From positions 10,478,001-10,542,000 of the forward strand of contig CM114271.1 in assembly GCA_050084515.1 (NCBI GenBank): DNA of 64,000 nucleotides, read 5' to 3'. Positions 5,148 through 49,882 of this stretch are shown here, piece by piece. A program made the translations under genes and the position numbers. Within the stretch, counting starts at the first letter, position 1. Every line of letters starts with the position of its first letter. Under the pieces are notes generated by a model that saw only the letters and a list, made by a program, of their open reading frames with translations, was not told the DNA's origin and did no database searches. Source of the DNA: Blasia pusilla. Taxonomy: Eukaryota.

Positions 5148-6359
5148 TGTAATGTATAAGAGTTTCAATTTTACAATTTTTTACTAAGTTCGATCCCCAA
5201 GAGGATCATTGTTTGATGAAAACAGAGTTCCAAATTACAATTCTGTTGTAATAGTTGTATTTAGGTGTGAATAATTTAGATTCAATGTCTTATCAATATC
5301 TTCGGATCTTTCTTAGTACCAAGGTTTCTTTTCTCAATTCTCTCTAGTGGAGTTGATAGCACGCTCAGGTAAATTTCCTCTCGACATCAAGAAACCTCAC
5401 AGAGATCTCAACAAGAAAGCTGGCTTCTCCTACTGTCGGAACTCAATCCGTCTCGGCAGGCTACTCTCTGTCAAACAGATTTCCTACAACTCCATTTTGA
5501 TTATTCCATTGATGAGAAAGGTTTGCTTGATTCACTCTTCACTCTGCAGACCCAAAAAGAATACTCAGACATAAGCATTGCACATCAAAATGAAGGAATG
5601 AGTGCTTTACTACTCCATCAAGAATGAGAAAGCTTCAAAGTGTTTTACAAGCTCGAGAGGGTACTACTCCCTTGCTTGGACCATTCCTGTAGCATAAGGA
5701 CTTCGTAAGTGAATGATGATGATAGCTACTTTCATGTTTCTTAAATATTCTTTGAAGTAGGAGTGTTCCAAAGATTCGAAGCGTTCTTGATGAAGCTAGT
5801 GTCTCTTCAACATTTGTAACTACCTAGATCTATAGTGCTCTTCTCTTTTCCTAAGATCCCTATGAATCCCTATGAATTTGCTTGAGGTTGAAGCTCTTTC
5901 TCCTGATCTGAAGACAAAGCGCTCCATTCTTTGTTCTTGTTCCAGGTTCTTCGTTCTTCATGCTTCGTTCAAGAGCGAAGTACTTCTTTCTCTTCTTCTT
6001 CATGCTTCATGCTTCGTTCAAGAGCGAAGTACTTCTTTCTCTTCTTCTTCATGCTTCATGCTTCGTTCAGGAGCGAAGCACTTCATAGACAAGTTCTTAA
6101 TAGAGCTTTGTTGTCCTTTCGAAGCTTCTTGCTGGGTCTTACTGGGTCTTTATTTTATTCTCCTCTCCTCTCAGGCAAATCCTTGATTTACTATCTCTCT
6201 GCCTTGTCCTTGGAGCTTCTTGATTCATTTCAATCTCACTCATTCTTCTCCATAATAATATATAATAATAACCATAACATCAAAATCATAGTGTATATAC
6301 AAGTCTTCTTTGAATAAAAAGATGTAATTCATCAAAAGTACAAAATTGTGGGTATCACA
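5148..6359 (-). repeat. 5' LTR of Athila-like copy A
   Basis: TGTGATACCC...CATTACA on the minus strand. Homologous over most of its length to the solo LTR at 13958-15097. Confidence 0.85.
5955..6085. repeat. Short tandem repeat (~3 copies of ~40-45 bp, CTTCATGCTTCGTTCAAGAGCGAAGTACTTCTTTCTCTT) inside the LTR
   Basis: Direct repeats visible in the sequence. Confidence 0.8.
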
Positions 6360-8570
6360 ATATGCCTTCCTAGATCAAGTATTGAGTCATTACGGTGCAC
6401 TAGCTAAGGAGTTGACAAACCAGGGTACGGAGTTTCGCGGGGAGTTTTAGGCCTTGTGTGATCAGACGATGATCGACCACCGCACCACGTCACGAGATCA
6501 TCCCGAGGCGGATAGACTAGCAGAGAGGGTTGTGCAGACGGCGAAGAGAGGATTACGCAAGTATGGCTTGCAGAGAGGTCTCTTGGGAGATTGGGACCTC
6601 CAATTGCCGTGGTTGGCGATGAGATACAGATTCAGCAAGCAGACATCCTTAGCGTCTTTCTCACTCTACTTGCTACTTTATGGCCGAGAGTTAGATTCAC
6701 ATGCGGCCATTCGTCAAGATATTGGTGAGGTGTTGAACTGTGATGACCCTGATGCATGGATGCGAGCATGTTCTCAGAGGGTTAAGTTATTTTGGAGAGT
6801 CATGCCCATGGCGTTTGAGAACTTGGCGATTGCGCAACATGGGGATACGTTGAGGTATGCGACTATTTGGGGGAGGTGGTTATCGACCTACTATCTGGAG
6901 GTTTCATCAGGGAGACTATGTCTACTTGTAGCAGACGGCACCCATGACGTTGGATGTGACTGTAGGGCGCACTATCTTGAGAGTGCGTGAGATTTTGCCA
7001 TCCGATGTTTTCTTATATGAGGGACGCGATGGTATGGTTTGGAAGGACCATATGTGTAACTGTGCGCCATCTTATCTTTCGAACATTGACGGTACAATTG
7101 ATTCGAGAGGAGCGGTAAGAGGAGAGAGGAAGATATTGGCAACCCCTAGGGCCCTCTTGGTTTGAAGAGAGTTTCCAACATGTTGGAGAGAGGAAAGTTT
7201 TGACAAGTTGAAAAGGCAATTTTTTTCCAAAAATATTTGGCGGTGAAATTTTTTAAAATTTTTTTTTACCTGTTCAACCCGTTTGAATCCGACGAATTGC
7301 AATTTTTTGGTTTTTTCCTTCTGGTCAAGGAAAAAATTTCTTTTTTTGGGTTTTTTTAACGTTTGCAGTCCTTTAGACTCCAAACGTTAAAAAAACCCAA
7401 AAAATGAAAATTTTTCCCTTAACCAAAAAATAAAATTAAAAAATCCAAAGAATTGCAACCCATCACATGGTTGCACAAAAACGGACAAGTTCGGACATGG
7501 GTTACAAGAGGTGGGATCCACATTTATAGTCCATGATGGAAGGCAAGGCAAGGATGAGTGGAGCAATGAGGGAGGAGGGAGTGGAGGTGGAGGGAGGAAG
7601 AAACGAGGGAGTATGGAACACGAAGGCAAGTAAGGGGAAGGAGAAAGAAGGGAAAGGTGGGGCCCATATGAAAAAGTCCTTCCATAGGACGGACATAAGT
7701 CCACGGACATGGACATGTCCACGGACACGGACTTTGTCCACATCCAACCTTGACCCATCGGATTCCAACGGGTTGCACTAAGTTTGCTCTCTTCAAAAAA
7801 AATTTCCAAAAAAATTACTCACTTATTATCCATAATCTTCAAATTTTTTGGAGAGGGTTTCGGTTTTTTTTTCCTTTTGTGCCTTTTTTTTTAAGAGAGA
7901 CTCTCCTCTCTCCCTCTCTCCTGCCAAAATACCAGCCCCCGTTGATATGAGCTTAGCAGTAGTTCATGTAGGCTTGCGATGTATGCTGTGTGGTTTTGCC
8001 CGTGGTGCAACCACGATGCTAGTCTATGATGGATTTTTGAGAGGGTGGCATATGGCATGTCTGACCCCACCTCTCACTAGGGTTCCTCATGAACGATGAA
8101 TGTGTCCCAGATGTACATAGAGTAGGTAGTTCTAGATTCCGACTTGTGTGTGTGACAGGGATGACAAGAAGGTGACTAATGATGGGGCCATATGAGCACC
8201 CGACCTTCTTGCTCTTAGCGTCCGAGAGATGTATGTCATGGTAGGTAGGGATAGATGGCTATCTGGAGTTAGAGGGACCTAACCACCAGCTAGGGGGGCG
8301 ATTGGAGATACTTTGGTACTTCTTGTCTCGTTGTTTGGATGCCATGAGTTAGCATGGGAATGTGGGTGTTCATGTGTATGTTCGGTGACAGCGATGTATC
8401 TTGTGTAGCGATGTGTATGAGCACAATAGTTGTCACATCTTTTTGTTTGGATCCGCAAGATCAAGTAGAGTGCCTTCGGAGATACTGGAGGACAGCCTCA
8501 GGAGGTCAAGGATGACCTGCTGAGGTCACGGGTAACATGAGAGAGCAGGTTTCCCCTTCTCGATAATACC
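6360..8570 (+). mobile_element. 3' fragment of the DNMT/PHD Gypsy family (integrase core and C-terminus, degenerate PHD finger, PPT, repeat A', start of repeat B')
   Basis: ORF 6454-6990 (HRTTSRDHPEADRLAERVVQTAKRGL) is homologous to 13435-13947. PHD remnant CMLCG...WHMACL at ~7975-8118. PPT TAGGGGGGCGAT at 8291-8302. 8303-8428 matches the reverse complement of 37001-37126. Confidence 0.85.
7105..7940. mobile_element. Non-autonomous (MITE-like) DNA element inserted in the integrase C-terminus
   Basis: Interrupts the host frame NIDGTID|..SLAVVH. Degenerate flanking duplication ATTGATTCG(AG)/GTTGATATG(AG). The right end (...CTGCCAAAATACCAGCCCCC) is the reverse complement of the terminus at 56778. 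It contains AACCCGTTTGAATCCGACGAATTGC, a variant of the palindrome in that element. The left boundary is uncertain by a few bp. Confidence 0.75.
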
Positions 8571-11500
8571 CTGGGAACTTAAGACGTTGATTGTCATAGA
8601 GTAGCACCAAATCCCCTTCTCGTACTGATTGTGGTCGCAGGTTCTTGTCATAGCGTCTCTTTCTTTGTGCTTGGACTATCTTCGTATGGCTAAGAGCAAG
8701 ATGTCTTTCCTCCTCCAAAGTTACCAAGTATTCGTTCCTCTTTTTGGTGATGGCCAAATCTTCATCGTTCCTTTCTTCTTCCAGAATCCGGTTAGTGGGC
8801 AAGTCCCATTCGATTGGAATCACGGGTTGAATCCCATACGTCAGAAAGAGTGGCTTGTACTTGGTAGTGACCTTCTCCATTGTTTGGTAGGCCCAAAGTG
8901 TTGCAGGGATCTTGGTATCCCAATCCTAAGAATAGGTGACAGCTAGGCGGTTTCAGATCCGGCAAATAAGCCCATTGGACTTTTCTGTCAACCCATTGGC
9001 TTTGGGGTTGTAAGGCTTAGTCTTCCTAGGCTTGATAAGGAAGTGTTCGATCAACACCTTGACCGTTTTGTTGAGGAAATGAGTTCCCCGGTCGCTTACC
9101 AACTTCAAAGGACAACCATATATGGTAATTATCATCTCATATAGAAACTTGGCCACTGCCTCAGTGTCATCTTTGCGAGTAGCCACTGCTTCCAACATTT
9201 TGGTACAATAATCTGTAGCAACTAAGATATATTTTCGGCGGGTGTGCCGAGTAGTTAGTGAAATAGGTCCCACAAAATCAATGCCCCATTTCTCAAAAGG
9301 GGCCAAAAGAAGGATAGGAACAAAAGGCCAACGAGAAGTCGTTGTTGGTCTTCCTGCTCTTTGACAAGCATCACACTTTTGGATGAAGATTCGGACATCC
9401 TGATACATTGTTGGCCACCATTTCGGCGAGGATCTTCTTAATAGTATTCTTGACTGCATAATGTCCTCTTGCATCCTCCAAATGCATAGCAATAATCACT
9501 CGAGGAACTCCCTCCCTCTCTTAACATCTTCGGTATTCTTTGTCCGCGTCAAGCTTGAATAGCACATCCTGGCAGAGCTCATAGGGCCCTACCTCATGTA
9601 GAAACACTGCACGTTCTTCTGCTCTCATGGGGGCTAGAAATTGGAGAGTGACGAAGAAGCGCATAATATCTCCATAAGCGGATCTTCGCAGAGTGTCCTT
9701 GTTGATTAGGAATAGATATTTGTCTGGGAAGTTGTCTGCGAGAGTCCTCGTGAGATCAGCCTTTGGCGTCCTTAAGCGTGATAACAAGAAGTCCACGTTG
9801 GTATGGATCTTCCCCACTCTTGTTACCACGTCAGATGTGAATTCTAGCAATAGTAGAATCCACTAAGCAATCCTCCCTAACAAATCTGCTTTCACCACTA
9901 AGGCTCAAAGTGGAAAATGGTTGACATGGAAAACAACCGGGTACCCCAACAAGTAATGTTGGAACTTCTTGCAGGAAAAGACCATCCCCAAGGCTTCTCT
10001 CTCCGTAGTAGTGTACTTTTGTTCCGCAGCTGAAAGTTGGCGACCTGCATAGTATATTGGGTAGTCCTTCTTCTTCCAATCATCCAAGTGGATTAGTAAT
10101 ACTCTGATCGCGAACGAAGAAGTGTCTCCATACACCTGGAACGTCTTCGCCCAATCAGGAGGACAAAGCACAAGAGTTTTCATTAAAGCCTACTTCAATT
10201 CCTCAAATGCTGCTCGGCAGGTGGGAGTCCATTCCCACTCCGTTGTCTTCTTCAACAAGGTAGTCAACAACTTTGCCTTTATGGCATAATCCTTAATGAA
10301 TCGGCGGTAGTACCCTACATGGCACAAGAATCCTCTTAGCTCAAGAAGACTCGTGGGGGCTTCCAACTCCGCAATTATCTCCACCTTAGCCTTATCCACT
10401 TCGATACCACGCGAGGATACTTGATGCTCCAACAGGATACCCTGCCTTATTGCAATGTAAGATTTCTCCCGGTGCAAAGACAATTGTACTTCTCTGTACC
10501 AAGCTAAGGTTAGCTTCATCTTTTGTAAATGCTCGGCTTCAAAACTGAAGCCACAAAAGTCCTCTAGAAAGATCTCTATGAATCTTCGTAAGTACTCTTG
10601 AAAGATAGAAATCATCACTCTTTGGAAGGTGACTGGTGCATTGCAAAGCCCAAAGGGCATAACTTGATAGGCAAAAGTGCCCCAATCCGTAGTGAAGGTA
10701 GTCAGGGCCCGATCCTTCTCTCTAATGGACACTTGATTGTAACTTGAATATCCGTCCAAAAATGTATAGCACTCATGACCGGCCACTTTATCTAAGATAG
10801 TATCAGTAAATGGCAGTGGGTGATGATCCTTCATGGTGGCTGCATTTAGCTCCCAGTAATCCTGACAAACCCTGATCTTTTCCGATTGCCTTTTCAATAC
10901 AATGACTATGGGGATACCCATTCACTATTCATCACAGGATATATGACTCGTGCTTCCAACCGCTGGTCAATCTCATCCTTAACCATTAAAGAATACTTGG
11001 GATTCAGCCTATACTCACGCATTTGTTTAAGATCAATCCTATGTTCTCCATACCTAGCTAACACTCCCTTCATCTCATCCATAGTATAGGCAAACACGTC
11101 AAGGTACTCTGCAAGTAAGGTCTTATATTGTGAAAGTTCAGAAGTAGACATATCTATTGATAGATGCAAAGCCTTGGTGTTGGTGATAAAGACTTCTTGG
11201 TAGTCTTTTTCATGCACCATCTTTTCAGTAAACTGATATGTTGTGAGTCCGGATGGCTCTTGGAGGGCCTACTCTGCTCTAAGTGTAAGAACTCTTCATC
11301 TATCTCATAACATTCTAGATATCAAACATAAGACGAGGATTGTGTGTCGGCCGTCGAGCCCTGATCCGAAGTGTATCCCTCATCCGTAGCGGGTGTCTCA
11401 CCTTGAGAAGGCCTAGACTTCCAAGAAAACTTCACCTTGCTTCTTGGGAGTATTGTATGGTGTCTGAAAGGTGAATCTTTGTCTTTTCCAATCCGTGTTG

Positions 11501-12370
11501 ACTTGAGCCCCATAGAGCCAAGGTCTTCTGATCAGTAGGGAGTAACGTGTGACAGTCAACGGCTGGAGGACAAGGTAGTCCAATAAGAATAGCACTCTTC
11601 CTATCATGGTGGGGATCTGGGTAAGTTGCCCCAATGGTCGCTTTCGAGACTGGTCTGCAAAGCGTAAGTACGTATCAGTGGGCTCATACTTAGTGTAACC
11701 CAAAGCCTGAGCAGTTTGCTCTGTCATTATGTTGATGCCGCTTATGGAATCAATAGAGACCTTCTTAATGGTATGCCCTTCAATTCCACTTCCACCTCGG
11801 GGGCTCCAAGGTCTTCAACCTCTATGCGGAACAAATCCACCACTGGGAGCTTCTTTGTTCCTATCTTCTTCTTGCGTCCCACTTTCCACTGTTGCAGAAT
11901 CTTCCCATAAATAGGGTTATCCATGAGTAGCTGTAATAGTGATATGTTTGCCGGACTCGCTACCAAATCCTTCAGCAAGTCATATGCCTCCATCACTAGA
12001 GGGGAAGCAACCGAGGTCTCCACCCTTGGTTCTTCTTGCTAAATTGAGAACTCTTTAGGTAAGGCTCCACTTGTTCGCTCTTCATGGACTTGGTTGTGGA
12101 TCTGCTCCTCCACCTAATGATGGAAATACTTTGGATGATTACGATCAAAATCTGGGTCCACATTGCCTTTAAAAATCGCCTTCCCTCCTCGAAACATCTC
12201 GGATGCCTTATTTGTAGCTAATTTACTTCGTGAAGACGAAGACTCTTTGGCCTTTGCGCTTGCGGTCTTCTTAGTCTTTGACCGAAGACTTTATTGAGGA
12301 TATCTTCGGGCCAATCTGAGGACTCTTCATCGATCTTCCTCGCAGATCCCTCTTCCTCAATGGTCACCTT
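8570..12370 (-). mobile_element. Athila-like Ty3/Gypsy copy B (end of gag, PR-RT-RH-INT), decayed and truncated at both ends
   Basis: ORFs 11742-12023 and 11413-11727 (PR), 10190-10921 (RT), 9905-10183 (RH), 8953-9492 (INT: WGIDFVGP, VSDRGTHF). Closely similar to copy A. Confidence 0.9.
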
Positions 12371-12474
12371 TGTCGTGCAAATCCACATCGCCATACAACA
12401 TACATCGCTGACATACCATACTCACATACCTACATGACATAGATGAGAGCATCCACAAACACAAGTGTACCACA
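12371..12474 (-). repeat. Repeat A, outer copy (104 bp, TG...CA)
   Basis: Near-identical to 12847-12950. TGTGGTACAC...GCACGACA on the minus strand. Confidence 0.9.
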
Positions 12475-12476
12475 AT

Positions 12477-12844
12477 TGAAATCCGTGAAAGACCTACTGT
12501 CATAAAACACGTATAGAATCATATATAATCGAGCCAAACCCACTCCACGATGGGAAAATCCAGGTCAAAGCTTGCGGGAACCACCATAGCCAAGAGCTCT
12601 ACTCACTACCAAGGCTAATTCCCAACGCAACAGGCTCAACTCAAAGAACTAACTGTTCTTTGAGTGCACTCCACACTATATCCTCCAACCTAAGAGCGGG
12701 CCCTACTGGAAAAGTCACCCTCAACTGAGTAACCCCCAACCCTATGTATGAAACCGCATCTCTACTTAGACACTACAGTCCTACATAAGGTATGGCCTCT
12801 ACTAGCACACTATACTCTACGACATAATCTGTATGGTCATGACA
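12477..12844 (-). repeat. Repeat B, 3' copy (368 bp, TG...CA)
   Basis: About 20 mismatches by eye to 22994-23361. TGTCATGACC...GATTTCA on the minus strand. Confidence 0.92.
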
Positions 12845-12846
12845 AC

Positions 12847-12950
12847 TGTCGTGCGAATCCAAATCGTCATACAACATACATCGCTGACATACCATACTCA
12901 CATACCTACATAACATAGACGAGAGCATCCACAAACACAAGTGTACCACA
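12847..12950 (-). repeat. Repeat A, inner copy, immediately after the PPT
   Basis: Preceded on the minus strand by the purine tract TTAGGGGGGCGAGT (12951-12964). Confidence 0.9.
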
Positions 12951-13125
12951 ACTCGCCCCCCTAACTGGAGGTTAGGTCCCTCTAGGTCCCAAGTAGCCCT
13001 ATACATCTACTACATGCTACACACCTTCGTGGGTGTACGAATCAGAAGGCTGGGTGCTAGGTTGCCCCATTGTTAGTCGCACATCTGTAATCCATATCAT
13101 GCAAAGATCAAGTCATCTACCTCTC

Positions 13126-13270
13126 CTAAGTACATCGAGGACAAACCCACCTTCCAGTAGGAACAACATCCATACGTGGAGTCAAACACATCATGTGCCA
13201 ACCCCTAGAACACCGATCACACACCAACATACGGGCTGCGTTACCAGGAGACCCACACAACATGCACATC
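13126..13270 (-). CDS. PHD finger at the integrase C-terminus (part of the decayed pol)
   Basis: CMLCGSPGNAARMLVCDRCSRGWHMMCLTPRMDVVPTGRWVCPRC is a complete C4HC3 PHD pattern. Confidence 0.92.
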
Positions 13271-13957
13271 AAGCTAGCACGTATCAAGGCTAAGCTTGGG
13301 TCAACAGTACCATCCACATTTGGAAGATGATATGGCGCACAATTACGCACATGGTCCTTCCAAACAACTCCATCACGACCCTCCAACATGAGAACTCCAG
13401 AAGCTAACACCTTGCGCACTCGTAAAATAGTGCGTCATGCCGTCACATCCAACGTTTTCGGTGCAATGTGCTCCAAATAGACATAGTCCCCCACATGGAA
13501 CCTACAAATCGATGGTCGATAACCTCCACCCCGAATGGTTGCATACCGCAACGTATCCCTGTGTTGAGCAATGGCAAGATTCTCAAAGGCTGTTGGCATA
13601 ACTCTCCGAAAGAGCTCTGCCCGTTGAGAACACACTCTCATCCACATCTCTGGGTCATCAAGGTTCACCACCTCACTAGACTCCCAACGAATTGCTGCTG
13701 GCAAGTCTGGATCTTGGCCGTATAACAGAAAAGAAGGTGAGAAGGAAGCCAAGGATGCTTGGCGACTGAACCTATATCCCATGGCTAACCATGGCAACTG
13801 AATATCCCAGTCTCCAAGATGCCCCTTCTGTAGGCCATACTTGCGCAATGCCCTCTTCACCGTCTGAACCACACGCTCAGCCAAACCATCCGCCTCTGGA
13901 TGATCTTGAGACGTGGTCCTATGATCAATCAACGTCTTGTCACACAAGACCTCAAAC

Positions 13958-15097
13958 TGTAATGTATAAGAGTTTCTATTTTACAGTCGTTTTAATAAGT
14001 TCGATCCCCAAGAGGATCATTGTTTGATGAAAAGAGAGTTCGAAATTACAATTCTATTGTAATAGTTGTGTTAAAATGTATATGAGTTATATTCAATGTC
14101 TTATCAATATCTGCTGAACTTTCTTAGTACCAAAGGATCTTCTCTCGATTCACTCTAGTGGAATTGATAGCATGTTCAGGTAGATTTCCTCTCGATATCA
14201 AGAAACCTCACGAAGACCTCAACATGAAAGCTGGCTTCTCCTACTTTCGGAACTCAATCCGTCTCGGCAGGCTACACTCTGTCAAACAGATTTCCTACAA
14301 GTCATGTTGATTATTTCATTGATGAGAAAGGTTCGCCTGGTTCACTCTTCACTCTGCAGACCCAAAAAGAATACTCAGACATAAGCATTGCACATCAAAA
14401 TGAAGGAATGAGTGCTTTACTACTCCATCAAGAATGAGAAAGCTTCAAAGTGTTTTACAAGCTCGAGAGGGTACCACTCCCTTGCTCGGACCATTCCTGT
14501 AGCATAAGGACTTTGTAAGAGAATGATGATTATGGCTTCTGTCTTGCTTCTTAAATACTCGCTGGAGTAGAAGTGATCCAAAGATTCGAAGCGTTCTTGA
14601 TGAAGCTAGTGTCTCTTCACCATTTCTAACTACCTAGATCTATGGTTCTCTTAGCTTTTCCTACGATCCATGTGAATCCGCAGAACAAAATTGTCCTAAC
14701 TACCAATTTGATACAAAGGGTCGTGCCCCTTCCTAGTCTAACTGTTCTAATGTGCGTCGCTTGAAATCACAATCATTCTTAGCTTCGCTTCGCTGGTATG
14801 CTTCGTTATAGAGCAAAGCACTTCGTAGACAGAGCTTCGTTGAGCTTTGTTGAGCTTCGTTGACGTTCCGAAACTTCTTGCTGAGTCTTGAGACTTCGTT
14901 ATTGCATTTTCCTCTCCTCTAAGGCAAATCCTTGATCTTCCATCTCTCTGCCTTGTCCTAGGAGCTTTGTGATTCACTTTAATCTTACTCATTCCTCCTC
15001 ATAATAATAAATAATCATAATCATAATCATAATGTACAAGAGTCTTTGTTGAATAAAGAGATATATTCTTCAAAAGTACAAAATTTTGGGTATCACA
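13958..15097 (-). mobile_element. Solo LTR of the Athila-like family inserted in the integrase of DNMT-Gypsy copy 1
   Basis: Homologous to 5148-6359, with TG...CA ends. Flanks CAAAC/AAAAC are a 5-bp TSD with one mismatch. The host frame rejoins when it is removed. Confidence 0.88.
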
Positions 15098-15533
15098 AAA
15101 ACTCACCCTAAAACTGTGTACCTTGGTCGGTTAGCACTTCAGCTGGTGCACCAAAATGACTAAGCACTCTATCAAGAAACGCATACGCCGTTCCCTCACT
15201 TGCCTTGTCATCTAATGCCACCAACTCAACCCACTTGGAGAAGTGCTCCACCATCACCAACACATATCAATGATGTCGTACAATCAACGATAACGGTCCC
15301 GCAAAGTCCACACTCCAACGGTAACCCAACCCCATAATAGGCAAGGGGTGTAACTGTGGTGTAGGGGCATTGAATGATGCCCTCACCCGGTCACAAACCA
15401 TACAACGTGACACCAATTGCTGCACCTAAGTATGCATGCCACGCCACCAATACTGACCAAGCAGTAAGCTATATGTACGCTTTACCCCAAAATGTCCCAA
15501 CTCCTCATGGGCATGTCGCACAATGCGCTCTCT

Positions 15534-17390
15534 CTAAGCCAAATGCGGCACTACTTGTTGTCTACCATCCTCCCACATACGGAGAATACGTGTTCCCTCC
15601 AATCGATACCTCTTAGCACGTTGAAGAACACGGTCTCGCTCCTTGGCACTCACTATGCCTGGCACCCTACTGGTCCGTAGGAACTCCAACACCAACGCAT
15701 CATCATGAATATCATGCTGATCCGTACCACCATCTCCAACCTTAGGATCTGAAGGCTGGCCATCTATCCTCTGACTAGAGAAAGATGTCATGTGGTCCTC
15801 CATACTAGAGTCCACCCCTAACCAACATAAAAAGGCGAATGCATGCCAACCTGGCATTATCTCCTCATCAACCTCGCCATGCCATCTAGCCCCAGTTGCA
15901 TCCTCTTGGCTAGTACATGGGTTCCTACTCAACCCACCAGCATCAAGGTTGGCAACTCCAGGTCTATGTACCACTTGGAAGTCATACTCCTGTAAGATAA
16001 GAGCCCACCGTGCAAGCTTCCTTATAAGCTTGTCAGACTCCATCAACCACTTGAGCGGCTGGTGATTAGTAACAAGGGTAAACTCTTTGCCAAACAAGTA
16101 ACACCTAAAGTGTGCCATAGCCCACACTACTGCCAAGCACTCTCCCTCATATGAACTGTAGCGCGACTCCGCTGCATTATTCGAACGACTTGCATAGGCC
16201 ACCACAAACTCCATATGCTTATTATCATGTTGTGTCAACACCGCTCCAAGTCCCAACCTACTCCAATCAGTGTATAACTGAAATGGGTGCCCTCTGATAG
16301 GTCTCCTCAAGATAGGCGCCGCCACCAACTGGGCCTTGAGCTCCTCAAAAGCTCTCTCCTGATCATCTCCCCATTGCCACTCCTGATCTGATTTCAACAA
16401 TTGGTTCAAAGGCTTTGTCATAGTACTAAATCCCTTCACATACCTCTGATAGTAGTTCGCCAATCCCATGAATGCCCGAACTCTACTCACATCTACGGGA
16501 TGAGGAATAAGTGCAATAGCCTCCACCTTTGCTTGCTGAACTCCCAAACCACCTGGATAGATCACATGACCCAAGTACTCAACATCCTCATGGAAGAACT
16601 TACACTTTCCTGGATGCAAACGTAGACCATGAGCTTTCAACCGCTCAAACACAATCTGTAAATGTATCTAATGCTCCTCCACCGTGTTACTGAACACCAA
16701 GATATCATCAATGTAACATCGAACAAAATCCAACCCTGCTAGGATCCTGTCCATCACTCTCTGGAACTCCGCAAGTGCATTCTTCAACCCAAAGGGTAAG
16801 AATTTCCACTAGTACAAACAATCCTTGCCATGAGAGTTGACACCCCAAAATTTTGTCTTGGCCTTGTCACTCTCTCGAATTGGCAACTGATGATATCTTG
16901 CCCGATTATCCAAAGTACTGAAAATCTTTTCCTGTCCCACCACATCAAAGATCTCCTCAGGTGTAGGCATGGCATACCTATCAGCTTTGGTCTGCCGATT
17001 GATAGGACGGTAATCTCCACACAACAGCTCATCTGTGTAGTTGCCATGCACATCCTTTTTAGCAGGCATGACAATGGCTGATGCATACTCTCCATGCGAC
17101 AACTCCACTAATCCAGCCTCCAAAAGGTCCAACGTCCTACTCTGAATCATGTCCCTCTCCATATCACTATATCAGTAGGGACGACGGAAGATTGGCGTAT
17201 CACTAGCCAAATCAATCCGTATACTGGGTCCAACAAAAGCACCCAACTCCTTCATGCTAAAGGCAAAAAAAATCCTATCAGCACGTAGGAACTGTGTCAA
17301 GCGTCGTTTCTCACCTCCCGTAAGCTTGGGCCCAAGTAATTGCTCCCAAGTCTCCTCCATTGGCACACTAGAGAGAGAGGACGATGCCAT
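15534..17390 (-). pseudogene. RT and RNase H of DNMT-Gypsy copy 1
   Basis: CGDYRPIN, LPFGLKNA, YIDDILVFS (16690-16720), FQLYTDWS, SSYEGECLAVVW. Stops and frameshifts present. Confidence 0.92.
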
Positions 17391-17639
17391 TGGCTGCTAC
17401 GCAACCCCCTCACAAGATAGTACACCCTTAGTTACACCATTACCTGAACAAATAACTCCTCCACCAGCATGAGAAACCAACTCCACATGCCCAACCATTA
17501 CATCCCATTTACTCCAAGGATGCAAAATACTACTCTCCTCGCCCCCCGCCGATGCCTCTACCGTCCCGGTAGCCATTGAGCTCATCACAAGGGGTAGAAG
17601 ACACACAAACATAGTCCGAAATCGACTCTGCTCGGCCAT

Positions 17640-18600
17640 ACAAAGACTCAAAATCGAAGTCAAACAATTCAGGTCCATGGCCTGACCCAACACATGACGT
17701 CGTGAAGCCTCAGAAATGGAAGCAACCGCTATCACACCAGTAGCAAATCCCATCACACGCTCTCTCTCATCAGCGTTAGGCTCCACCAATTGTCGCACAT
17801 GAGAATCCCATACAAGCCCGAGACCACCTTCCCTGTAGGCATGTGACGAGGGAAAACTCATAAATGTGGGTAGTGCCATCCTAGGCTGGCCCACACGGTT
17901 CACCACTGCCATGGGTGACCGATCAATAACCCTCACCACCTGAGAAAGTCGCCCAATATCCAAGATACTATCCACTGTAAGGCAAGGATCCCGCCAGATC
18001 GCATCATATGCTCGACGTAGAACCTCCTAGGCAACAAGTTTGTCCACCATAAGCGTGGGCGATGTGCCTGTGATCAACTCGTTTGCATCCAACAACACCG
18101 CTGGTCCAATCCAAGACCGCACCTCATGAACACTCGCCATCATCCGGGTCCAAGTGTCATCCAACAATGGAACATTCTCCAGAATGTAAGCTCGAGCACG
18201 TGCCTGATGAACCTGAAGATGTCGTACCACCCGTAACATCTCCCAAAACAATCGAGACCTAGGGTCTTGTAATCCCTCACCATGACCAGCACGTGTATGA
18301 CCTTGACATGGCCATCCAGCAATCACCAAATCCACAAGACCAACCCTCTCAAGGTCCTGCGTCCCCAACAATGCAATGTGTGATGGCAAAGCACGCTGGT
18401 ACCCACGAATAGCTGATGGCGGCAACAACTCAGGATATCTCCGCATCAACTGACCAATATGCCGAGATGAGACTCTGTGTCCCGTCTCATCTCGCTCCAC
18501 ATACACGTATCTCCGCACAGGAATACCGGCCTGCAACACTGCAGCCAAACCAGTGCTAATCCCACCAAAGAGATCTAACACACAAATGCCCTCCGGCAGA
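17640..18600 (-). pseudogene. C5-cytosine DNA methyltransferase domain (DNMT3/DRM-like) within Gypsy pol, copy 1
   Basis: Motif I VLDLFGGI, motif II YVYVE, motif IV DLVIAGWPCQ, RSRLFWE, motif VI ILENV, motif VIII (frameshifted) RPRLWWTNL, motifs IX-X ERERVMGF...RRHVLGQAM. Confidence 0.92.
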
Positions 18601-21600
18601 TACTGCCATACAATGGGTTTAGTATCCAAAGGGGATAACCCAACTGGACCAGAAGTAGGAGTCCGCCTGGGGCCTCCTCTTCCTCGTGAGGTATAGTAGC
18701 CTCACACCAAGCCTCCTGCACTAGGCGATCAGCCTCCTGCACTAGGCGATCAGCCTCCTACCGTAGTGCACCACCTACACTCCAAAGTGGCACATCCAAC
18801 GATAAGGATGCCATTGCTGCAAAACTAGGGACCTCCTCTATCTCCTCATGCACAGAAGAATCCATAGGAGAAACATCACCCTCCAAAAAGTCTCATGGCC
18901 AAGTGACTACTCCACTAAAACCAGCCACAGATGCTAACACCGTTGGGGAAGACCCTCCTGGTCGAGCCCCACAAATAAATCTCACAGGAACTTGGCTCAT
19001 ATGTCCATCCCCTGTCTGCCAACCAGGTCTATAAGATGATGTCTCAGTCCAGTAATCCATCTCAAAACCCATTGAGTAAAATATTGCTCCTGCAACTAGT
19101 ACATCATACGACTCGGCTGATATGACCACTGGAGGTTCTCCCAACCGGGAGCTATCAGTCGCATGATCTGGTCTCAACTATACAGAGAACTTCTCCCGTG
19201 TCATGAATTGAGATCTATCATTGGCTCCTCCAAGTGATGTTTGAATCTGGAATGGGCAAGGCTCAAGCTCTGACCTCCAAATACTCAAACCAACACATGC
19301 CTCCTTTCCCAACATCAAAGGTTGGGCACCAAAGTCTAACAAGACTCTATCTGGTCTATACACTTGTCTTGTAGGACTCACCAATCAGAATATCCCATTC
19401 CAATTGTCCAACATACATACACCAGGTGTAAGCCTCTCACGATCAATGGCTGGCCGGGCTGGTAATGTATCCATCTTCGCCGCTGCTGCCTGCCAAGTAG
19501 CACTGGTACTCAATGCTACAATTGACATAGAGGGTCGCTCCACCGCAACACCCTCATCCATCTCAGCATGTGTAGCAATAACACCCCCACGTTCACACAA
19601 CGTGGCTGCTAGTTGAAATACAAGAGCTAAGTCAACTCCTAAAGCCATCAGCTCCGTGGTCGAAAAAAATGGGGATCCCAACACTGAAATTTCCATCCGC
19701 AATACTGCACTGGATGTTGCATCCGTGTCTACTACACACAATGTAGATGCCTTAGTCCCCACTGTCGGCTCAATAGGCTGCATAGGAACCATGGATGGAG
19801 TCCTAAGCACCTCAGACAACAAGAATGACTGGGGAAGCCTGGCCTGCCTCCCAGCCTCACCCCTCTGTGGGTCCAACTCCACAGTAGCACCACGTGGCTC
19901 TGACGCTCGAGTGGCTCCTCTCGTAACTATAGTTGATGCCTCAACCTGTGCTGCACTCGCCATATAAGAGAGATCATCCCCTCCATAAGAGGTGGAAGCC
20001 CCCTGCTCCCCAACGTGATCTATGCTGGATACCATCCATAATAGCCAACTTTTGCTCCAACTGCTCAATCCTGGCAGCCATAGCTGACTCTGTCGTAGTG
20101 GTAGGGGTAGCCACCGTAGGCTCTCCGACCACTAGTCCACCTCTACCACCCCTACCACCTCTACCACCTCTACCACCTCAGCCTCTCGGAGCTACTCCAC
20201 CACGGCCGCGGCCTGATCTCAACTCTGGATGAAGATCAAAGCAACGCTCTTGAGGATGACCTGGTCTCCCGCAATGATCACACTGAGTTGGGGCCGACTG
20301 AGGCCTATCCGTCTCCCATCCTCTTGGGGATAAAACTTCCTAACATGATCACCTCCACATATCCAACATGACTGTCCTTGCTGCGGGGCGGCAAATGAAG
20401 GCAATGGTCTCTACGCAAGTGTCCCTCTAGGACCTGACTGAGGTCGTGTGTACCCCCCACGACTCCCACTACTACTACGACCACCACTACTACGAGATTG
20501 TGAGGTGGGCTACTGAACACGAGAAGGAGTAGTTGTATCCCTACTAAATGCGGATGTCACCACTCTCTCCTTCACCATGTTAAGCTCAATCTTCTCAGAT
20601 AGAGCAAACACATGGGTCAATGTGGGTGAATCATCACTCATAAGAGTAGCATCACGTACCCTACGACGCAACTCTCTGTCCAAGATCCCATACCAAAACT
20701 GGACTGCTTGAACCTCAGTCACACCCTAGGTAACTGAAATCAAGCGTGGCATACAAGTGTATGCCTCACGAAGACTCTCACCAATCTTTCGCCCAAATTC
20801 TTGAAGACTCCTCAACTTCTCTGTCTTCACTCCCTGATAGTTCTTCTTCAACCTCTTGAAGAACTCTGCAACCGGGCTGAACGATGGTGGGGCACTAGTA
20901 CCTCCACTAGTACCCCCATTGGTACCTCCATGGGTACCTCCACTGGTACCCCCACTCTGGCTCGTACTCGTACCACTCAACGTTGGGTTGGCTGGCATAG
21001 TAGGAGCATTACTACCAATACCACCATGGGTGATAGACACATAGCTTGGAGACCAATATTGTCTCCACGCCTCAATCTCAACAACATGGTCCTTCCTAAA
21101 CTCATGGTAATAATCCATGGGTGGTCCCTCAATCTTTGAAACAACCCTTCCAAGCCAAGAAGGGTGTAAACAACGTATGCGTTCAACAACATGCATATCA
21201 CACCAGGTATCAAACTCCTGCATGAAGTACTCCAAGTCAATGGTGCCCACTGCACCCGAGTATCGTCGTGGGCCCTTCATGGCCCCATATATTCCGTCCA
21301 TGTCCCAAATCAATGGAGCTGCAACACTCGATAACAATGTAGAAGACTCGGTGTTTGGAACACCCTCGTCCTCCTCTTCATCAACCATCGGAAGTGGAAA
21401 AGGTAGCCAACACCTAAATCCACTCCGTGTGAAATCACTAGTGTCCACACCATGGTCCCCAACCAGACCACCTGACAGCTCCGTGATGACCAACGTTGAT
21501 GCCGCACCACCACTAAGTAACCAAGTGACGTCGATGTCACTGTAATATTCTAGCTCTACTAGCTGTGGGTGTAGGCAACCTAACCTGTCAACACCACAAG

Positions 21601-22981: not shown

Positions 22982-22994
22982 TAGTTCTTTGAGT
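22982..22994 (-). promoter_or_regulatory. Putative self-priming PBS (ACTCAAAGAACTA)
   Basis: Abuts repeat B, does not begin with a tRNA-type TGG, and is a 13/13 reverse complement of 12639-12651 in repeat B, ~30 nt downstream of a TATA-like motif. Confidence 0.7.
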
Positions 22995-23361
22995 GAAATC
23001 CGTGAAAGACCTACTGTCATGAAACACGTATAGAATCACATACAATTGAGCCAAACCCACTCCACGATGGGAGAATCCAGGTCGAAGCTTGCGGGATCCA
23101 CCATAGCCAAGAGCTCTACTCACTACCAAGGCTCACTCCCAACGCAACAGGCTCAACTCAAAGGACTAATTGTTCTTTGAGTGCAATCCACACTATATCC
23201 TCCAACCTAAGAGCGGGCTCTACTGGAAAAGTCACCCTCAACTGAGTAACCCCCAATCCTATGTATGAAACCGCATCTCTACCTAGACACTACGGCCCTA
23301 CATAAGGTATGGCCTCTACTAGCACAATATACTCTACGACATAATCCGGATGGTCATGACA
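22994..23361 (-). repeat. Repeat B, 5' copy
   Basis: Direct repeat of 12477-12844, not accompanied by repeat A. Confidence 0.92.
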
Positions 23362-24746: not shown

Positions 24747-28916
<4,170 letters not shown>

Positions 28917-33500: not shown

Positions 33501-36500
33501 AGAGGTGTCTACATACACTTGGAACGTCCTCGTCCAATCAGGAGGGCGAAGCACCGGAGTTGTTATCAATGTCTGCTTCAACTCCTCGAATGTAGCTTGA
33601 CAAGTTGGAGACCACTCCCACTCCTCGATCTTCTTCAGTAGGGTAGTTAAGGCTTCGCCTTTAGTGCATAATCTTTAATGAACCGGTTCATTAAAGATTA
33701 TGCACTAAACCCCACATGCCCCAAGAATCCTCTTAGCTCACAAAGACTCATAGGAGCTTCTAACTCTGAAATTATCTCCACCTTAGCCTTATCTACTTTG
33801 ATACCGCACGAAGATACTCGATGCCCCAATAGGATACCCTGCTTCATTGCAATGTGAGACTTATTCTGCTCCTCTAGTCTCTTGGATCTCCTTGGATGTG
33901 TAACAACTTCATCAGTTGCGGGTGAATCCCTACCATCCAAGAGCTGCTTTATCCACTTAGGGTATGACAACCATAGTGGAAGAGCAGGCTGCTCTTTGTA
34001 ATCATCACCAAATTCTTCTTCTTGATGATCAGATGTAAACATTGGTGGTGTGCTCTTGTGGGTTATCTCATCGTTTGATGATAATGTGGACCGACCACTG
34101 ATATCCGCCATTTGAAAAGGCTGTTCCTGGAACACCATATCACGACTCACAAGCATCTTCTTTGACTCAGAACACCATAGGCGATAAGCTTTAGCCTCAT
34201 CACTGTATCCCATAAAGATGCACTTCCTGCTCTTGGACTCCAGCTTGGTCCTAGATGCTCAGGAATATGTACAAAGCACTCACTACCAAAAGTCCTGAAA
34301 TGTTGGACTAATGGTACCTTACCTGAGTATGATTGATGAGGAGTCATGCCTTGCACTGACTTGGTAGCACTTCTATTTAGAATGTAAACGGCAGTATTAA
34401 CAGCTTCATCCCAAAATCCTTCTGTCAAACCTTTTTCTTTCATCATACATCTTGCCATCTCCACCACTGTACGGTTTCAACGCTCAACAACTCCATTTTG
34501 TTGTGGTGTATGTGCCGTGGTTAACTGTTGCCCGATTCCATGCTCCCCCAAATATTTGTTGAATTCTGTTGATAAGAATTCTCCTCCTCAATTGGTGCAA
34601 AGCTTCTGTACCTTCTTTCCTGTCTCATTCTCAACCAGCTTGTGCCATACTTTAAATTTTCCAAAAGCACTTGCCTTATCACGAAGGAAATACACCCACA
34701 TCTTCCAACTATAATCGTCGACAACTAAAAAGAAGTAGGAAGAACCACCTAATGCCAATGTTCTCATTTTACCACAGAGGTCAGCATGAATCAGCTTTAG
34801 AGGAGCCTTTGCTCTATTGCTGGACTCTTGTGGAAATGGTTTTCGGTGTCGCTTGCCCATCATACAAGCTTCACATGTATCCGACACTCCAGAAATTGTT
34901 GGTAAATCAACAACCATGCCAGATTTCTGCATCTGACTTAGTAAGGGGAAGCTTAGGTGACCAAATCTTTCATGCCACAACTTACTGCTACTAAGATCTA
35001 TACCTACACTTGTCTTGAAAGCATACAACTCGTAGATATTTCCACGTCGTATACCTTCATCCACTTATTTCCCATTGGCATCCTCAATGACTGCTCCAGT
35101 TTTCTTGAAACGAACTTCTAGGTCACGATCACATAATATTGCTATTGAAATCAAATTTTGCTTCAACTCTGGTACGTACAATACATCAGTTAACTTCTTT
35201 TCATCTCATTTTTGTGAGACTAAAGAAATTGTGCCTTTCCCTTATATAGGGCACTTTGGATTATTTCCAACAGTAACAACGATGGGCTCCTGTAGAGGCT
35301 GTAAGGAGCTATACCAGTCCTTATGATTGGTCATATGCCTAGATGCTCCACTATTGAGCACCCATGCATCTTCACTCTTTGACTTAATGGAATGTTTTGC
35401 TTGTGTGCAAAACTCTTCGATTGCTGCCCAAGCATCTACCTCATGCTCTCCTAGTTCTACAGAATTTCCAGACTCCTTCTTAGGTCTTAAACAACCGTTC
35501 TTCTCATTCTCACTTCTCTTTCTACAATCTTTGATAAGATGACCTAGCTTACCACAATAAAAGCATTTGAAGGCTTTCCTTAGAAATTTCTTCTTGACAT
35601 TTGAACTGTAATACTGATTTCTATCTCTCTGTACATTGGCAGTAAATGCTGCATCACTTCCCTCTCTTGCTTTGAAGCGCATTTCCTCTTCTACCAACAT
35701 TGCACTAAATTTTTCAAAAGTAAGCGGCCTAGGTCTTACTTACTTCAATTTTCAATGCAGTGACCAAACTGTCATACCTTGGAGGAAAAATCCTTATGCA
35801 TCGACGAGCCAAATCTTTGCTAGACTTTGAAATTCCTACAAACGCCATCTGATCTTGAAGATTCTTGATCCTTGTAAAAAATTGCTCCATGCTTTCTCCT
35901 TCTGAAAAGTTCTCGGACGTAAGCTAATTCTCCAGATTCTAAATCCGAGCCTCATTTCTCTTTTCATACTGATTCTTCAGAATGTTCCACGCCTCAGCAA
36001 CAGTGGTTGTATGTTGAATGAGAGTCATGACAAAATCAGTTATATTCGTGACAATCGCATATAGAGCATCAACTTTTCTGCGTTTCCATGCCAACAATAC
36101 AACATGATCGATATCCCTAGATGAAGATGAAGATGAACATGTAGAACTCAAAGTAGCTTGTGGATTCAAATCGACCCCTCTGGCCGTCTCCCAGATCTCA
36201 AATGATTGGAGGACAGTTCTCATTTTGAACTTCCATAATGTATAGTTAGACCCATCTAACTTCCCTTCACCCCGCACCTCATGCAATATAGGGTTAAATA
36301 ATCCTAGTAACGCTACTCCGTAAACCACCTACATCATATTACTATGACTCCTCCGACGTCTAAGTTGAAACCATCAATCTAGGCTTCTCCTCATACAAAG
36401 GGGGCCGATCAGATTAATGGTGATGAGAGAAGTGGATGTTGAGAATCCAACATGTCCTCCCTTCTTGCAGTTACCACATAGGGGATTCAACCCTACGGAT

Positions 36501-40000: not shown

Positions 40001-40529
40001 TTGGAAGATTGGCGTGTCACTCGACAACTCAATGCGGATCCATGGACCCTTTAGTGTATCCAAATCCTGCATACTAAATGCAAAACAACTCCTATAACTC
40101 CTAAGGAACTGATGTATTTGGCGCCGCTCTCTTTTTGTCAACTTAGGACCCATGTGTGGCTTCCAAGTCTCCATCGTGACTACGGTAGGACTCTCCAGCT
40201 CGGCTACCGATGGTTGCTATGGTGCAACCCCGTCTCGGACAACAAAACTTGACCACTCCTGTGCAGCCAACTACAAAATCGGATCTCCATTTGCAGTACT
40301 TGGCACCACACTCGATGTTGCGGGTACCATCTCTTGACGTACATTCAAAAAATCCCAAGAAGTCCAAGGGCGTCTCTCCCGATCACCCCTGGTGTAGCGA
40401 TCTCATTGGGTCTCGCTCCCGGCCACTGTCTCAACTGTCTTGCTAGGCATGGGGCTCACCAACGCAACTTTTGTGATCTATCGCATCCTTAAACGACGTT
40501 GCTCAACTACTCCTAAGTTGAAAATCCAT

Positions 40530-41460
40530 GTCAAGCAATTCAGGTCAATTGCTTGACCCATGATGTCATGATACCTTTGATAGTGATAGTACTGTCGTCA
40601 CTCTTGTGGGGAATCCCATCGCTCGCTCTCGCTCATCGGCATTGGGCTCCACCAAGCTCGTACCTGGTCATCCCAAACCAAGCCAGGTCTGGCCTCCTTG
40701 AATGCATAGGAAGCAAGAAAACTCACCAATGTGGGAAAGGTTGCTCGTGGCATGCCAATCGTGTTGACCACAATCAACGGCCGTCGATCATTGTGTCTCA
40801 CTGCTTGTGATCGACGGCCTGGATCCAATATAGAATCCACCAACCAATCGGAGGGAGGCTCCACTCTCGCATAAGCCCTCCGCAACACCTCATGTGGTAT
40901 CAAGTTGGTCCACCAAAGATGCGGGCGGTATGCTCTAGAACCTACACTCACCGCATCTAACAACAGTGCCAGGCTGATCCATGTGCGCACCTGATGTGCA
41001 CTCGTCACCATGCGGGACCTCGAATCACCCAAAATCGGCACATTCTCCAAAGTGTATGCTGGAGAACGAGGCTGATGCGCCTGTAAATGTTGCAAGATTT
41101 GCATCATCTCCCAAAACAACCTGGACCGAGTTTCAGCCAACCCGCTACCTTGTCCAACACTCGATAGGCCCTGACACGGCCAACCATAAATGACCAAGTC
41201 GATGGTCCCTACCCGCTCCAAGTCATGCGCCCCCAACAATGAAATGTCCCTCGGTAGGGAACTCTGGTAACCGTGAATGGCGGACACAGACAACAAGTTG
41301 GGAAAATAGAGGCGTAACTGCACCACATGGTGAAGTGAAGCGTGCCTTGCAACATCATCAATCTCCACATACAGGTATTGTTGCATGCGCACTCCAGCGT
41401 GCAACCCAATAGCTAACCCAATGTTGATCCCTCCAAAGAGATCCAACACCCGGATACCCT
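40530..41460 (-). pseudogene. C5-cytosine DNA methyltransferase domain within Gypsy pol, copy 2
   Basis: IRVLDLFGGI, YLYVEID, DLVIYGWPCQGLS, RSRLFWE, LENVP, RAYRPHLWWTNL in ORF 40598-41587. Confidence 0.92.
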
Positions 41461-42744
41461 CCTCTGGGATGCACCACACAATTGGGGTGTTGTCCAAAGG
41501 GGTCATAGCAGCACTCCTGCCTACTTGGGGTTCCTCTGACCCATCACACTCTAGTGCAAACGGTCTCGCTCCACGCGGCCTGCACATGCTCAGTGGCTAA
41601 GCGTCGAAGCTCTTCAGTCGGGCCTCAAAACGGCACCTCTCCTCCACGGACTGATGCGACTACCATGACACTCCTCTCCATAGAAATATCAAGAATGGGA
41701 CTATCCTCTGCATGGACGTGTCCCTCAATCAAATCACTAGGCCAAGTGATGGCACTGCTAAATGTTGCTAAGGTCGCCATCTCTCCTGGCTGTCGTTCTA
41801 TCACTACACCTGTGAATCGAACGGGTAATGAGCTAAGGCGCCCATCACTTGACTGCCATCCTGGTATGTAGGACATCGACTCCTCCCAATAATCCACAGA
41901 AAACCCCATCAGGTATAACACTGCTCTACCAACCAAGACATTGTAGGACTCTACATTAGTCACTATCGCCTTGGCTTGCACCATGGACTCATCTATAGGA
42001 TGTTCCGGGAAAATCCTCACCACGACCTCATGTCGGGTGATATACTGTGTGGTACTCGCTCCACCGGATACAGACATCCAGTATATGGAGCGTTGTCCAT
42101 TCCGGATACAGACATCCAAGGATGTCGTGCGCCGACTCTCCTTGAACGTTAATCTTGTTTGTTGCGGAAGCGTGCGTTCAGTAGGTCACGCTCTCAACGC
42201 TGATCTGCATCCAAACACGCACTTTGGTTAGCCGGGACTTGGATTCCAACCCGAAATTCACTTCGTGCAAGTCTTGGTGAGGAACTCATTGGATGTTCAT
42301 CGGACAGTTGGAACCGCTAGGCGCGAAACGCCGTTTTAGGTTCCTGAACCGACCAGAAAGTCTGTCCCAAGTCTTTCGAGACTTGCCCGTGTTGGAAACC
42401 GCGAAACTAGGAAGGTTGAGCTTGAAGAGAGAGTCCGAGATGGGAACTCGGAAAGTAATCCCGCTGATTGATCCAAGTCCTGGCTAACCAAAGTGCGTGT
42501 TTGGATGCAGATCGGCGTTGAGAGCGTGACCTACTGAACGCACGCTTCCGCAACAAACAAGATTAACGTTCAAGGAGAGTAGGCGCACGACACGTGGTAT
42601 CAGAGCAATTCCTTGATGAGCGTGAACTTGGGGTCGTTGAAGATTTGGACGTTTGGGGAGAACTCAAGGTAACCGGAAGACCGCGACACCGAGGAGGAAC
42701 GCAAGAGGCGAGGAGGAGATCTGAGAAAAGGCGACGACTCGCAA

Positions 42745-49471: not shown

Positions 49472-49644
<173 letters not shown>

Positions 49645-49733
49645 GAAATCCACTCTCATTGGGAAAGTAACAAGCCAAAACATCCGCTATTTCAGTATGA
49701 CTAAACTCCTCTAAGGTGACAAACCTCTCATCT

Positions 49734-49882
<149 letters not shown>

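Follow-up and report, generated by a model that had tools for sequence, protein, structure and literature searches.

A DNMT3-bearing Ty3/Gypsy family of Blasia pusilla with a PHD finger at the end of its integrase and a predicted stop-codon readthrough junction

DNMT3-bearing Gypsy elements, PHD-bearing Gypsy elements and elements that combine a DNA methyltransferase (DNMT) with a chromodomain have already been published separately. The first kind is represented by KnitGypsy-Dnmt3 of Klebsormidium nitens, present in few copies and carrying its DNMT in the same ORF as reverse transcriptase (RT) and RNase H (RH), whose authors proposed, in the peer-review file of the paper, that methylation takes place during reverse transcription (PMC5890265); DNMT3 in streptophyte retrotransposons is also mentioned in the available part of PMC12344493. 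What makes retrotransposons retain an enzyme by which they are normally silenced has been asked since 2018. The EpiLTRs of Cymbomonas and Euglena join a chromatin reader and a cytosine methyltransferase in one LTR element, in the form of a chromodomain, a DAM domain and a DNMT that is sister to DNMT4 (available part of 10.64898/2026.05.21.726589). PHD fingers in retrotransposons have been called widespread (PMC6673714, PMC8557442 and 10.1101/2021.11.30.470311, in their available parts). One from a green-lineage Gypsy, Gypsy-7a_cRei of Chlamydomonas, was proposed to reduce harmful insertions; in the accessible portion of that paper the domain list holds no DNMT and the legend puts the PHD before the integrase (PMC9940879). 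It had been allowed beforehand that PHD-bearing Gypsy integrases may already be catalogued in non-seed plants. REM1 of Chlamydomonas reportedly has its PHD in a separate antisense ORF.

Here we analysed a stretch of 64,000 nucleotides from Blasia pusilla (the window). The element of interest, copy 1, spans 23361-12371 on the minus strand and comprises Gag, zinc knuckle, protease (PR), DNMT, RT, RNase H, integrase (INT) and PHD (Table 1). It belongs to a high-copy Ty3/Gypsy family, with the order PR-RT-RH-INT and a DDE integrase, whose coding capacity is divided into ORF1 (Gag-PR-DNMT3) and ORF2 (RT-RH-INT-SH3-PHD) with an in-frame UAG-CAR-YYA between them. At the 5′ side, the weak PF03732 (Gag) match in ORF1 of the family copy L029 fell below the cut-off (E 0.0067), and PF13650 (protease) was over the cut-off in the relative P0213 and under it in P0186.

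Table 1. Features located in the window (feature, position, strand, basis).
Feature	Position	Strand	Basis
5′ terminal repeat A1, starts TG	22994..23361	-	94.6% identical to A2
Gag core, matched part; Gag reaches further upstream	20501..20878	-	tblastn 91% to copy L029
CCHC zinc knuckle of Gag	20241..20282	-	translation; PF00098 in relative P0213
Aspartic protease, active-site motif altered in copy 1	18992..19408	-	tblastn
DNMT3-like C5 cytosine methyltransferase, last ORF1 domain	17649..18596	-	PF00145 E 7e-10
In-frame TAG + CAR-YYA hexamer, predicted readthrough junction ORF1/ORF2	17391..17399	-	conserved across copies
Reverse transcriptase, private stops in copy 1	16473..17171	-	PF00078, tblastn
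RNase H	15954..16301	-	PF17917 E 4e-35
Integrase HHCC domain + first part of DDE core	15099..15521	-	tblastn 94%; PF17921, PF00665 in family copies
Private 1145-bp insertion in integrase core, 7-bp duplication	13960..15100	.	0/40 other copies
Remaining integrase core, catalytic Glu	13801..13959	-	conserved motif, tblastn
SH3-like integrase C-terminal domain + linker; private stop 13435-13437	13291..13530	-	beta-strand run, fold matches
C4HC3 PHD finger, last domain of ORF2	13132..13266	-	PF00628 + PDB matches
ORF2 terminal stop	13126..13128	-	common to 39/40 other copies
Repeat B1 ending CA + 2-nt spacer before A2	12845..12951	-	CA/2 nt/TG junction in 25/31 copies
Repeat A2	12477..12844	-	repeat match to A1
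Repeat B2, 3′ end CA	12371..12476	-	4-bp target duplication in 10/13 other copies, none in copy 1
Decayed PHD of related subfamily (copy 2); insertion separates it from integrase tail 6355-7102	7980..8117	+	tblastn E 1.5e-11
TAG-CAA-CCA junction of third divergent subfamily	40211..40219	-	DNMT 41467-40520, 55% identity; RT from 39991
Third DNMT-bearing subfamily (copy 3), split by nested insertions	37360-42074 and 50596-54538	-	
Chromovirus-type Ty3: PR, RT, RNase H, integrase, SH3 tail, chromodomain	43303-47263	+	inserted in third DNMT copy
Repeats flanking chromovirus-type element	42237-42466 and 48626-48855		
Other decayed retroelement, RT-bearing frame	26008-27742	-	PF00078 E 2.7e-31
Other decayed retroelement, retroviral SH3-like domain	33698-34258	-	
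Further Ty3 RT, RNase H and integrase pieces	1-2644 and 8569-12005		
Long dinucleotide arrays	about 24750-24970, 28780-28910, 49475-49880		

The repeats follow the layout A...B-A-B, that is DIRS-like split direct repeats, and two ordinary matching LTRs were not found. Both ends were located in 13 of 19 copies tried (6 lacked one end), and all 13 begin with TGTCA and have TG/CA ends; a 4-bp target duplication flanks 10 of 13 other copies and is absent from copy 1. Integration is therefore the work of the DDE integrase. Divergence between A1 and A2 has a median of 0.028 (21 copies). Inspection by eye revealed no tRNA primer site (TGG) after A1, and the 64-kb window contains no tRNA genes. The B1/A2 junction resembles the junction of a circle with joined ends, and priming and replication may depart from the standard route in a DDE element that has DIRS-like repeats. 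Membership of DIRS/Ngaro was rejected on the rve + H2C2 DDE integrase, the lack of a tyrosine recombinase and the 4-bp duplications. Troyka, defined in the available part of PMC12440569 by CG...CG ends, a 3-bp duplication and animal hosts, was likewise rejected, the present ends being TG...CA with 4-bp duplications.

The intact C4HC3 finger that had been noted at the end of the pol of copy 1 matches PF00628 with an E value of 2.5e-11 (43.8 bits, cut-off 24), and the interval 13126-13419 holds this PHD plus part of the SH3-like integrase C-terminal domain. The beta-strand run of the latter corresponds to residues 288-338 of the family integrase model (pLDDT 80.7), whose best fold matches are the PFV (foamy-virus) and Ty3 integrases. 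In copy 1 itself the PHD is confined to a 102-aa open frame and severed from the integrase core, because of the private stop at 13437, which is shared by 0/38 other copies, and the private insertion, which stretches the anchor distance to 1259 from a modal 114. The insertion is non-coding, and a relative of it abuts the copy-2 integrase core (5148-6360) in opposite orientation.

Family copies were collected with the PHD region from the 390-Mb assembly (150 scored matches at ≥90% identity, from 10,937 candidates), and 40 were sampled (L021-L060). Score rank decided 31 of them and long open frames the other 9, a choice that biases PHD conservation among the 40 upward. Between DNMT motif I and the PHD, the modal distances separating the anchors are all divisible by three, except for the two intervals flanking one poorly detected anchor (10-11 copies). 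The interval from INT5 to GPY is in frame in 30/36 copies, GPY to SH3 in 37/38 and SH3 to PHD, which lay within the search query, in 40/40. Over the full span from integrase core to PHD only 18/36 copies are in frame, since copies carry many small indels, and core and PHD share a single stop-free frame in 8/40, 7 of which had been picked for long frames. Across the family the PHD is a true domain of the integrase C-terminus, joined to it in frame; the predicted fusion accordingly stands for the family and is broken in the copy for which it was claimed.

The PHD closes the frame where a chromodomain might be sought: the copy-1 family gave no PF00385 match, and neither ORF a Pfam match to a DAM domain or chromodomain. 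The chromovirus-type element nested in copy 3 carries its chromodomain (PF00385, E 2.5e-14) at 47045-47263, directly after the integrase tail, which confirms the positional analogy drawn between the PHD and the chromodomain of chromoviruses. One genome offers a natural contrast of PHD versus chromodomain targeting. A degenerate second finger had been placed at about 7975-8118, and a decayed PHD was indeed recovered there in copy 2, a member of a different subfamily about 70% alike; its third and fourth Cys are lost, a stop stands at the Trp, and the portion before the stop has no Pfam match. After the integrase tail of copy 3 no PHD was found.

Predictions for the ligand of the finger come from its residues. 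The aromatic-cage Trp of H3K4me3-reading PHDs lies two positions before the His ligand, and an Asp after Cys3 and the N-terminus pocket P-x-G-x-W are features of unmodified-H3-tail readers. Counts were taken from the 104 of 120 listed homologues that fit the PHD pattern. At the cage position, Gly occurs in 100/104 homologues and 40/40 family copies, so that the cage Trp of an H3K4me3 reader is absent there; the Asp after Cys3 is found in 99/104 and the pocket Gly in 83/104, with P-x-G-x-W retained alongside the Asp. The best 60 of 148 PDB matches include CHD4, KMT2C/D, ATXR5, KDM5-PHD1 and BAZ as well as DPF, UHRF1, PHF21A and AIRE fingers, whereas ING- and BPTF-type fingers are absent from those 60. 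We take the unmodified H3 tail to be the state that ADD also reads. Most PHDs among the top PDB matches presumably read this tail (partly also PMC5415848). With KDM5-PHD1, BAZ2A/B, DPF, UHRF1, CHD4 and ATXR5 the finger has in common the Cys spacing, the Asp, the missing cage Trp and P-x-G-x-W, and it resembles readers of the unmodified H3 tail.

Unlike those readers, the PHD of this branch is net basic and has no acidic wall. With the wall position taken from an alignment to DPF2 (before the first beta strand, according to the available part of PMC5415848), acidic residues occur in 0/35 own copies, 0/5 nearest relatives and 57/80 distant relatives, and net charge is +4 in 28/35 copies, distant relatives having a median of -4. 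Loss of the acidic-wall charges weakens H3 binding by BAZ2A/B (PMC5415848, available part). A complex predicted for the PHD and 30 residues of the host H3 tail, run without alignment and without controls, scored 0.30 against a mark of 0.34 and is counted neither for nor against binding. The charge and the missing wall, shared with the five nearest relatives, would fit a land-plant-branch PHD that no longer reads H3 and binds target or nucleosomal DNA or a host factor; we consider this unlikely, since the Asp after Cys3 and P-x-G-x-W are kept and the nearest solved relatives are H3-tail readers. H3K4-directed integration by the PHD, as originally proposed, is plausible as a hypothesis.

The PHD is also the least constrained of five domains tested, with dN/dS of 0.42-0.64 in comparisons across families and 1.6 in those within (46 codons, non-independent pairs). 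Such weak constraint, together with the lack of a recovered PHD in copy 3 and its decay in copy 2, could mean that the finger is a vestige at the integrase end with little function in this branch. That reading appears very improbable, given that seven of eight zinc ligands are invariant in 12 PHDs from families with 32-73% identity and that PF00628 was recorded for 119 of the 120 homologues listed (317 found).

The DNMT was compared in the same manner. Its best PDB match is DNMT3A/B (E 6e-15), followed by DRM-type enzymes (5e-8) and HaeIII (1e-4), and its motifs stand in unpermuted order. The catalytic Cys is present in 33/33 and ENV in 34/34 family copies, and among homologues the Cys is kept in 49/51 and 28/31 (two sets). 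Against one related family, dN/dS of the DNMT is 0.16-0.23 and that of RT 0.10-0.18 (five non-independent pairs); two further, distant pairs were saturated. These values support a DNMT3-like enzyme with intact catalytic motifs under purifying selection, in agreement with the DNA-methylation writer that had been predicted in the element. Marchantia polymorpha and Calypogeia fissa supply the nearest named homologues (up to 80% identity), with Sphagnum and Closterium next, and on that account the host is probably a liverwort. In P0189-P0205, many Marchantia gene models that bear the label ‘DNA methyltransferase’ or ‘hypothetical protein’ correspond to Gag-PR-DNMT ORFs of this group, and a census of host DNMT3 genes could include them by mistake.

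Because of the in-frame TAG at 17399, no single open frame holds both DNMT and PHD here. This stop between DNMT and RT is shared by 28/29 aligned copies, and a search of the genome with the junction pattern returned 335 loci with TAG versus 1 with a codon not beginning with T, a pair of patterns that left out sense codons beginning with T. The hexamer CARYYA follows the stop in 19/31 copies and other in-frame stops in 0/162; the downstream frame is in phase, as in a TMV-type site. One copy retains Gag-PR-DNMT as 1254 aa up to the junction stop and then RT-RH-INT as 934 aa. An origin of the TAG as a C-to-T decay hotspot was rejected on the 335:1 ratio and on its recurrence in divergent families. 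CAR-YYA is the sole readthrough signal in TMV and directs readthrough in other plant viruses too, and stop junctions separate ORFs of the retroelements MuLV (gag-pol), SIRE1 (pol-env) and Tca2, the last a case in which a plausible readthrough context can mislead (PMC2194720, available part). The present junction likewise places an in-frame stop between ORFs, with the TMV consensus as its hexamer; versus MuLV-type junctions, the stop comes after protease and methyltransferase, not after Gag. RNA structure behind the stop was nothing unusual (z 0.0).

Conservation beyond the family was examined in 80 metagenome loci, many of them redundant. The DNMT lies just upstream of RT in 60, and the two are in frame with one stop in 17, with none in 7 and with several in 14, and in different frames in 22. 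All 11 single-stop loci with RT identity ≥63% carry TAG-CAR-YYA (5) or TAR-CAA-CCC (6), so a readthrough-type signal recurs in families whose RT identity is only 63-77%; the remaining 6 (RT 43-46%) have other stop contexts. Flanks differ among the 11 signal-bearing loci, with the first ATG 9 to 192 nt after the stop. Eighteen of 38 DNMT homologues terminate 64-134 aa past the DNMT without RT. The junction is not universal among relatives. In the related families L072-L074, L109, L111 and L112 the RT is in the -1 frame and shares 19-28 nt with the last part of the DNMT frame, an overlap by which these families may solve the same junction through frameshifting.

Transcription was assessed with two RNA runs of one study, matched by species label and mapped on L029 at 85% likeness (6% and 12% of each run sampled). 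We obtained 5258 and 5149 mapped reads, 919 and 738 of them at ≥99% identity, covering all 30 bins of the element; first mates were mostly on the minus strand, which in most stranded libraries means sense RNA. The element is therefore transcribed in sense over its whole length in both runs. Depth climbs from ~55-85 to ~120-150 across the UAG junction, a step located where related families contribute loose ends near L029:6505, and ORF2, where depth is higher, is the region where related families cross-map. Reads also join the Gag start to the integrase tail/PHD region (L029:2394-8908; 6 and 5 reads, ends GT..TC), and another joint skips 7822-8828 (16 and 31 reads); both are probably transcribed deletion derivatives, a similar internal deletion being present in L039.

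The higher depth over ORF2 could also be read as expression of ORF2 independent of readthrough, its own ATG being used through reinitiation, an internal promoter or splicing; DNMT and PHD would then never share a chain. An in-frame ATG does lie 9 nt after the stop in the copy-1 family and in one related family, a Coleochaete transcript is annotated as a complete 1083-aa ORF from RT to PHD, and Tca2 offers a precedent (PMC2194720, available part). However, divergent families share the hexamer and not the position of the ATG, none of the 15 RNA joints listed (of 18) removes just the stop, and the depth step falls where the related-family loose ends lie. We regard expression of this kind as unlikely. 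On sequence grounds, the UAG is quite probably a programmed readthrough site with DNMT3 made at Gag level, a joint reading in which we have good confidence. The claim that reader and writer form one polyprotein survives, then, only by way of predicted readthrough of a stop conserved in nearly all copies.

Relatives place the two modules in several arrangements. Among 121 proteins, 59 have a DNMT match and 58 combine DNMT, integrase and PHD within a single frame, in the orders RT-DNMT-INT-PHD (29), DNMT-INT-PHD (26) and DNMT-RT-INT-PHD (3); P0186 is a single chain of 2811 aa, Gag-PR-DNMT-RT-RH-INT-PHD. A quick RT tree (75 rows; homologues and two window outgroups; SH-aLRT only) gathered the 25 RT-DNMT-INT-PHD rows, without exception, into one clade (99) that also holds Pleodorina, Tetrabaena and Haematococcus, and the copy-1 family, Coleochaete and the readthrough-type loci into another (98). 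The DNMT thus adjoins the integrase in the algal clade with named chlorophytes. Algal members (P0034, P0044 and others) often extend 100-300+ residues past the PHD, with a conserved-looking tail domain. A B-gap-B repeat follows the PHD in 6/17 metagenome loci examined, an atlas search added just PHD clusters, from Chlorophyta, Streptophyta and Mollusca, and no protein named K. nitens was among the matches listed. By this distribution the pairing of DNMT and PHD is old. The DNMT shifts place and the PHD stays on the integrase, which argues for independent modules.

These arrangements bear on whether PHD and DNMT work as a single reader-writer unit in which the finger, as ADD does for DNMT3, would direct methylation to insertion sites with H3K4me0. 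The two would be in a single chain after readthrough and are so in P0186, the DNMT directly precedes INT-PHD in a well-supported clade (29 + 26 of 121), and the finger is of the unmodified-tail class. In the copy-1 family, however, a conserved stop and RT + RNase H separate the domains and a protease is encoded, and the position of the DNMT varies by clade, unlike that of the PHD. ADD abuts the catalytic domain in DNMT3, and the PHD here does not. A reader-writer unit is hence quite unlikely. The ADD-style coupling of integration to methylation that had been suggested finds little place in this element, because its DNMT is in the Gag-PR frame, ~1,000 residues from the PHD, and it has its own protease. 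Only the minor readthrough product would hold reader and writer on the same chain, with about 1,000 residues between them.

The preferred model, which we favour slightly overall, is a Gypsy-DNMT3-type element with two separately acting chromatin modules. The UAG would be read through at a few per cent, making RT and INT-PHD minor products, and because readthrough would be so rare, DNMT3 would be produced in Gag-like amounts, with many copies of it packaged; this first part is probable. The element protease would then free DNMT3, which could methylate newly made cDNA inside the particle or on its way into the nucleus and so pre-silence or mask the new copy, a step to which we give an even chance. 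The PHD would stay on the mature integrase and tether the intasome to nucleosomes as a chromodomain does; a chromatin tether of some kind is slightly favoured, and its most likely route, the H3 tail unmethylated at K4, which would bias insertion away from active promoters, is more tentative. The writer would not be guided by the reader.

Extended to the whole lineage, the model describes an ancient green-plant group (chlorophytes, charophytes, mosses, liverworts) that pairs a PHD-tethered integrase with its own DNMT3, and a bryophyte branch that moved the methylase before a leaky UAG, each capsid subunit delivering enzyme. Particles would pre-methylate cDNA, the transcribed family, whose copies number from hundreds to thousands, could set some of the host non-CG methylome, and the PHD would steer insertion to H3K4-unmethylated chromatin. 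Taken jointly this full reading is possible and still doubtful. To the question of why the enzyme is kept, the junction adds a concrete prediction, namely that the methylase is a packaged Gag-level protein acting on cDNA, apart from integrase targeting. DNMT3-bearing Gypsy elements are further extended into land plants at high copy number, including Marchantia gene models; they can be studied in Marchantia and may inflate host DNMT3 counts there. The weight of the finding lies mostly in the junction with its predicted readthrough and in how broad the lineage is, not in reader-writer coupling.

Among described elements, the EpiLTRs resemble the copy-1 family in uniting reader and methyltransferase, and differ in that the family has a PHD and a DNMT3-like enzyme. 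The combination of PHD and DNMT had been singled out beforehand as the notable part; a reader plus a DNMT in one LTR element is already on record with a chromodomain, and the pairing of PHD with DNMT3 was not found in the available parts of the printed sources. Likewise no description of PHD + DNMT3 in this lineage, of its bryophyte expansion or of the readthrough junction was found in the accessible literature, a body without most subscription journals, Repbase and theses. The term ‘PHD’ is absent from the text and readable supplements of PMC5890265, whose Fig. 4c may show one, and the text of the REXdb paper (PMC6317226) has neither ‘PHD’ nor ‘methyltransferase’.

KnitGypsy-Dnmt3 shares with the copy-1 element the DNMT class and the split-repeat layout (PMC5890265, available part). 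Like Gypsy-DNMT3 elements, the family has an unpermuted Dnmt3-related DNMT, DIRS-like repeats and purifying selection on the DNMT. Unlike KnitGypsy-Dnmt3, it has the DNMT at the end of the Gag-PR ORF, before a conserved UAG, and at least 335 copies; a DNMT within the RT/RNase H ORF occurs only in relatives such as P0186. Because this same-ORF feature is missing, we do not file the family as KnitGypsy-Dnmt3 proper. Chromoviruses likewise place a reader domain right after the integrase SH3-like tail, and differ from the copy-1 element in their chromodomain, ordinary LTRs and lack of a DNMT (PMC6317226). The element would work like a chromovirus-style tethered integrase inside a Gypsy-DNMT3 element.
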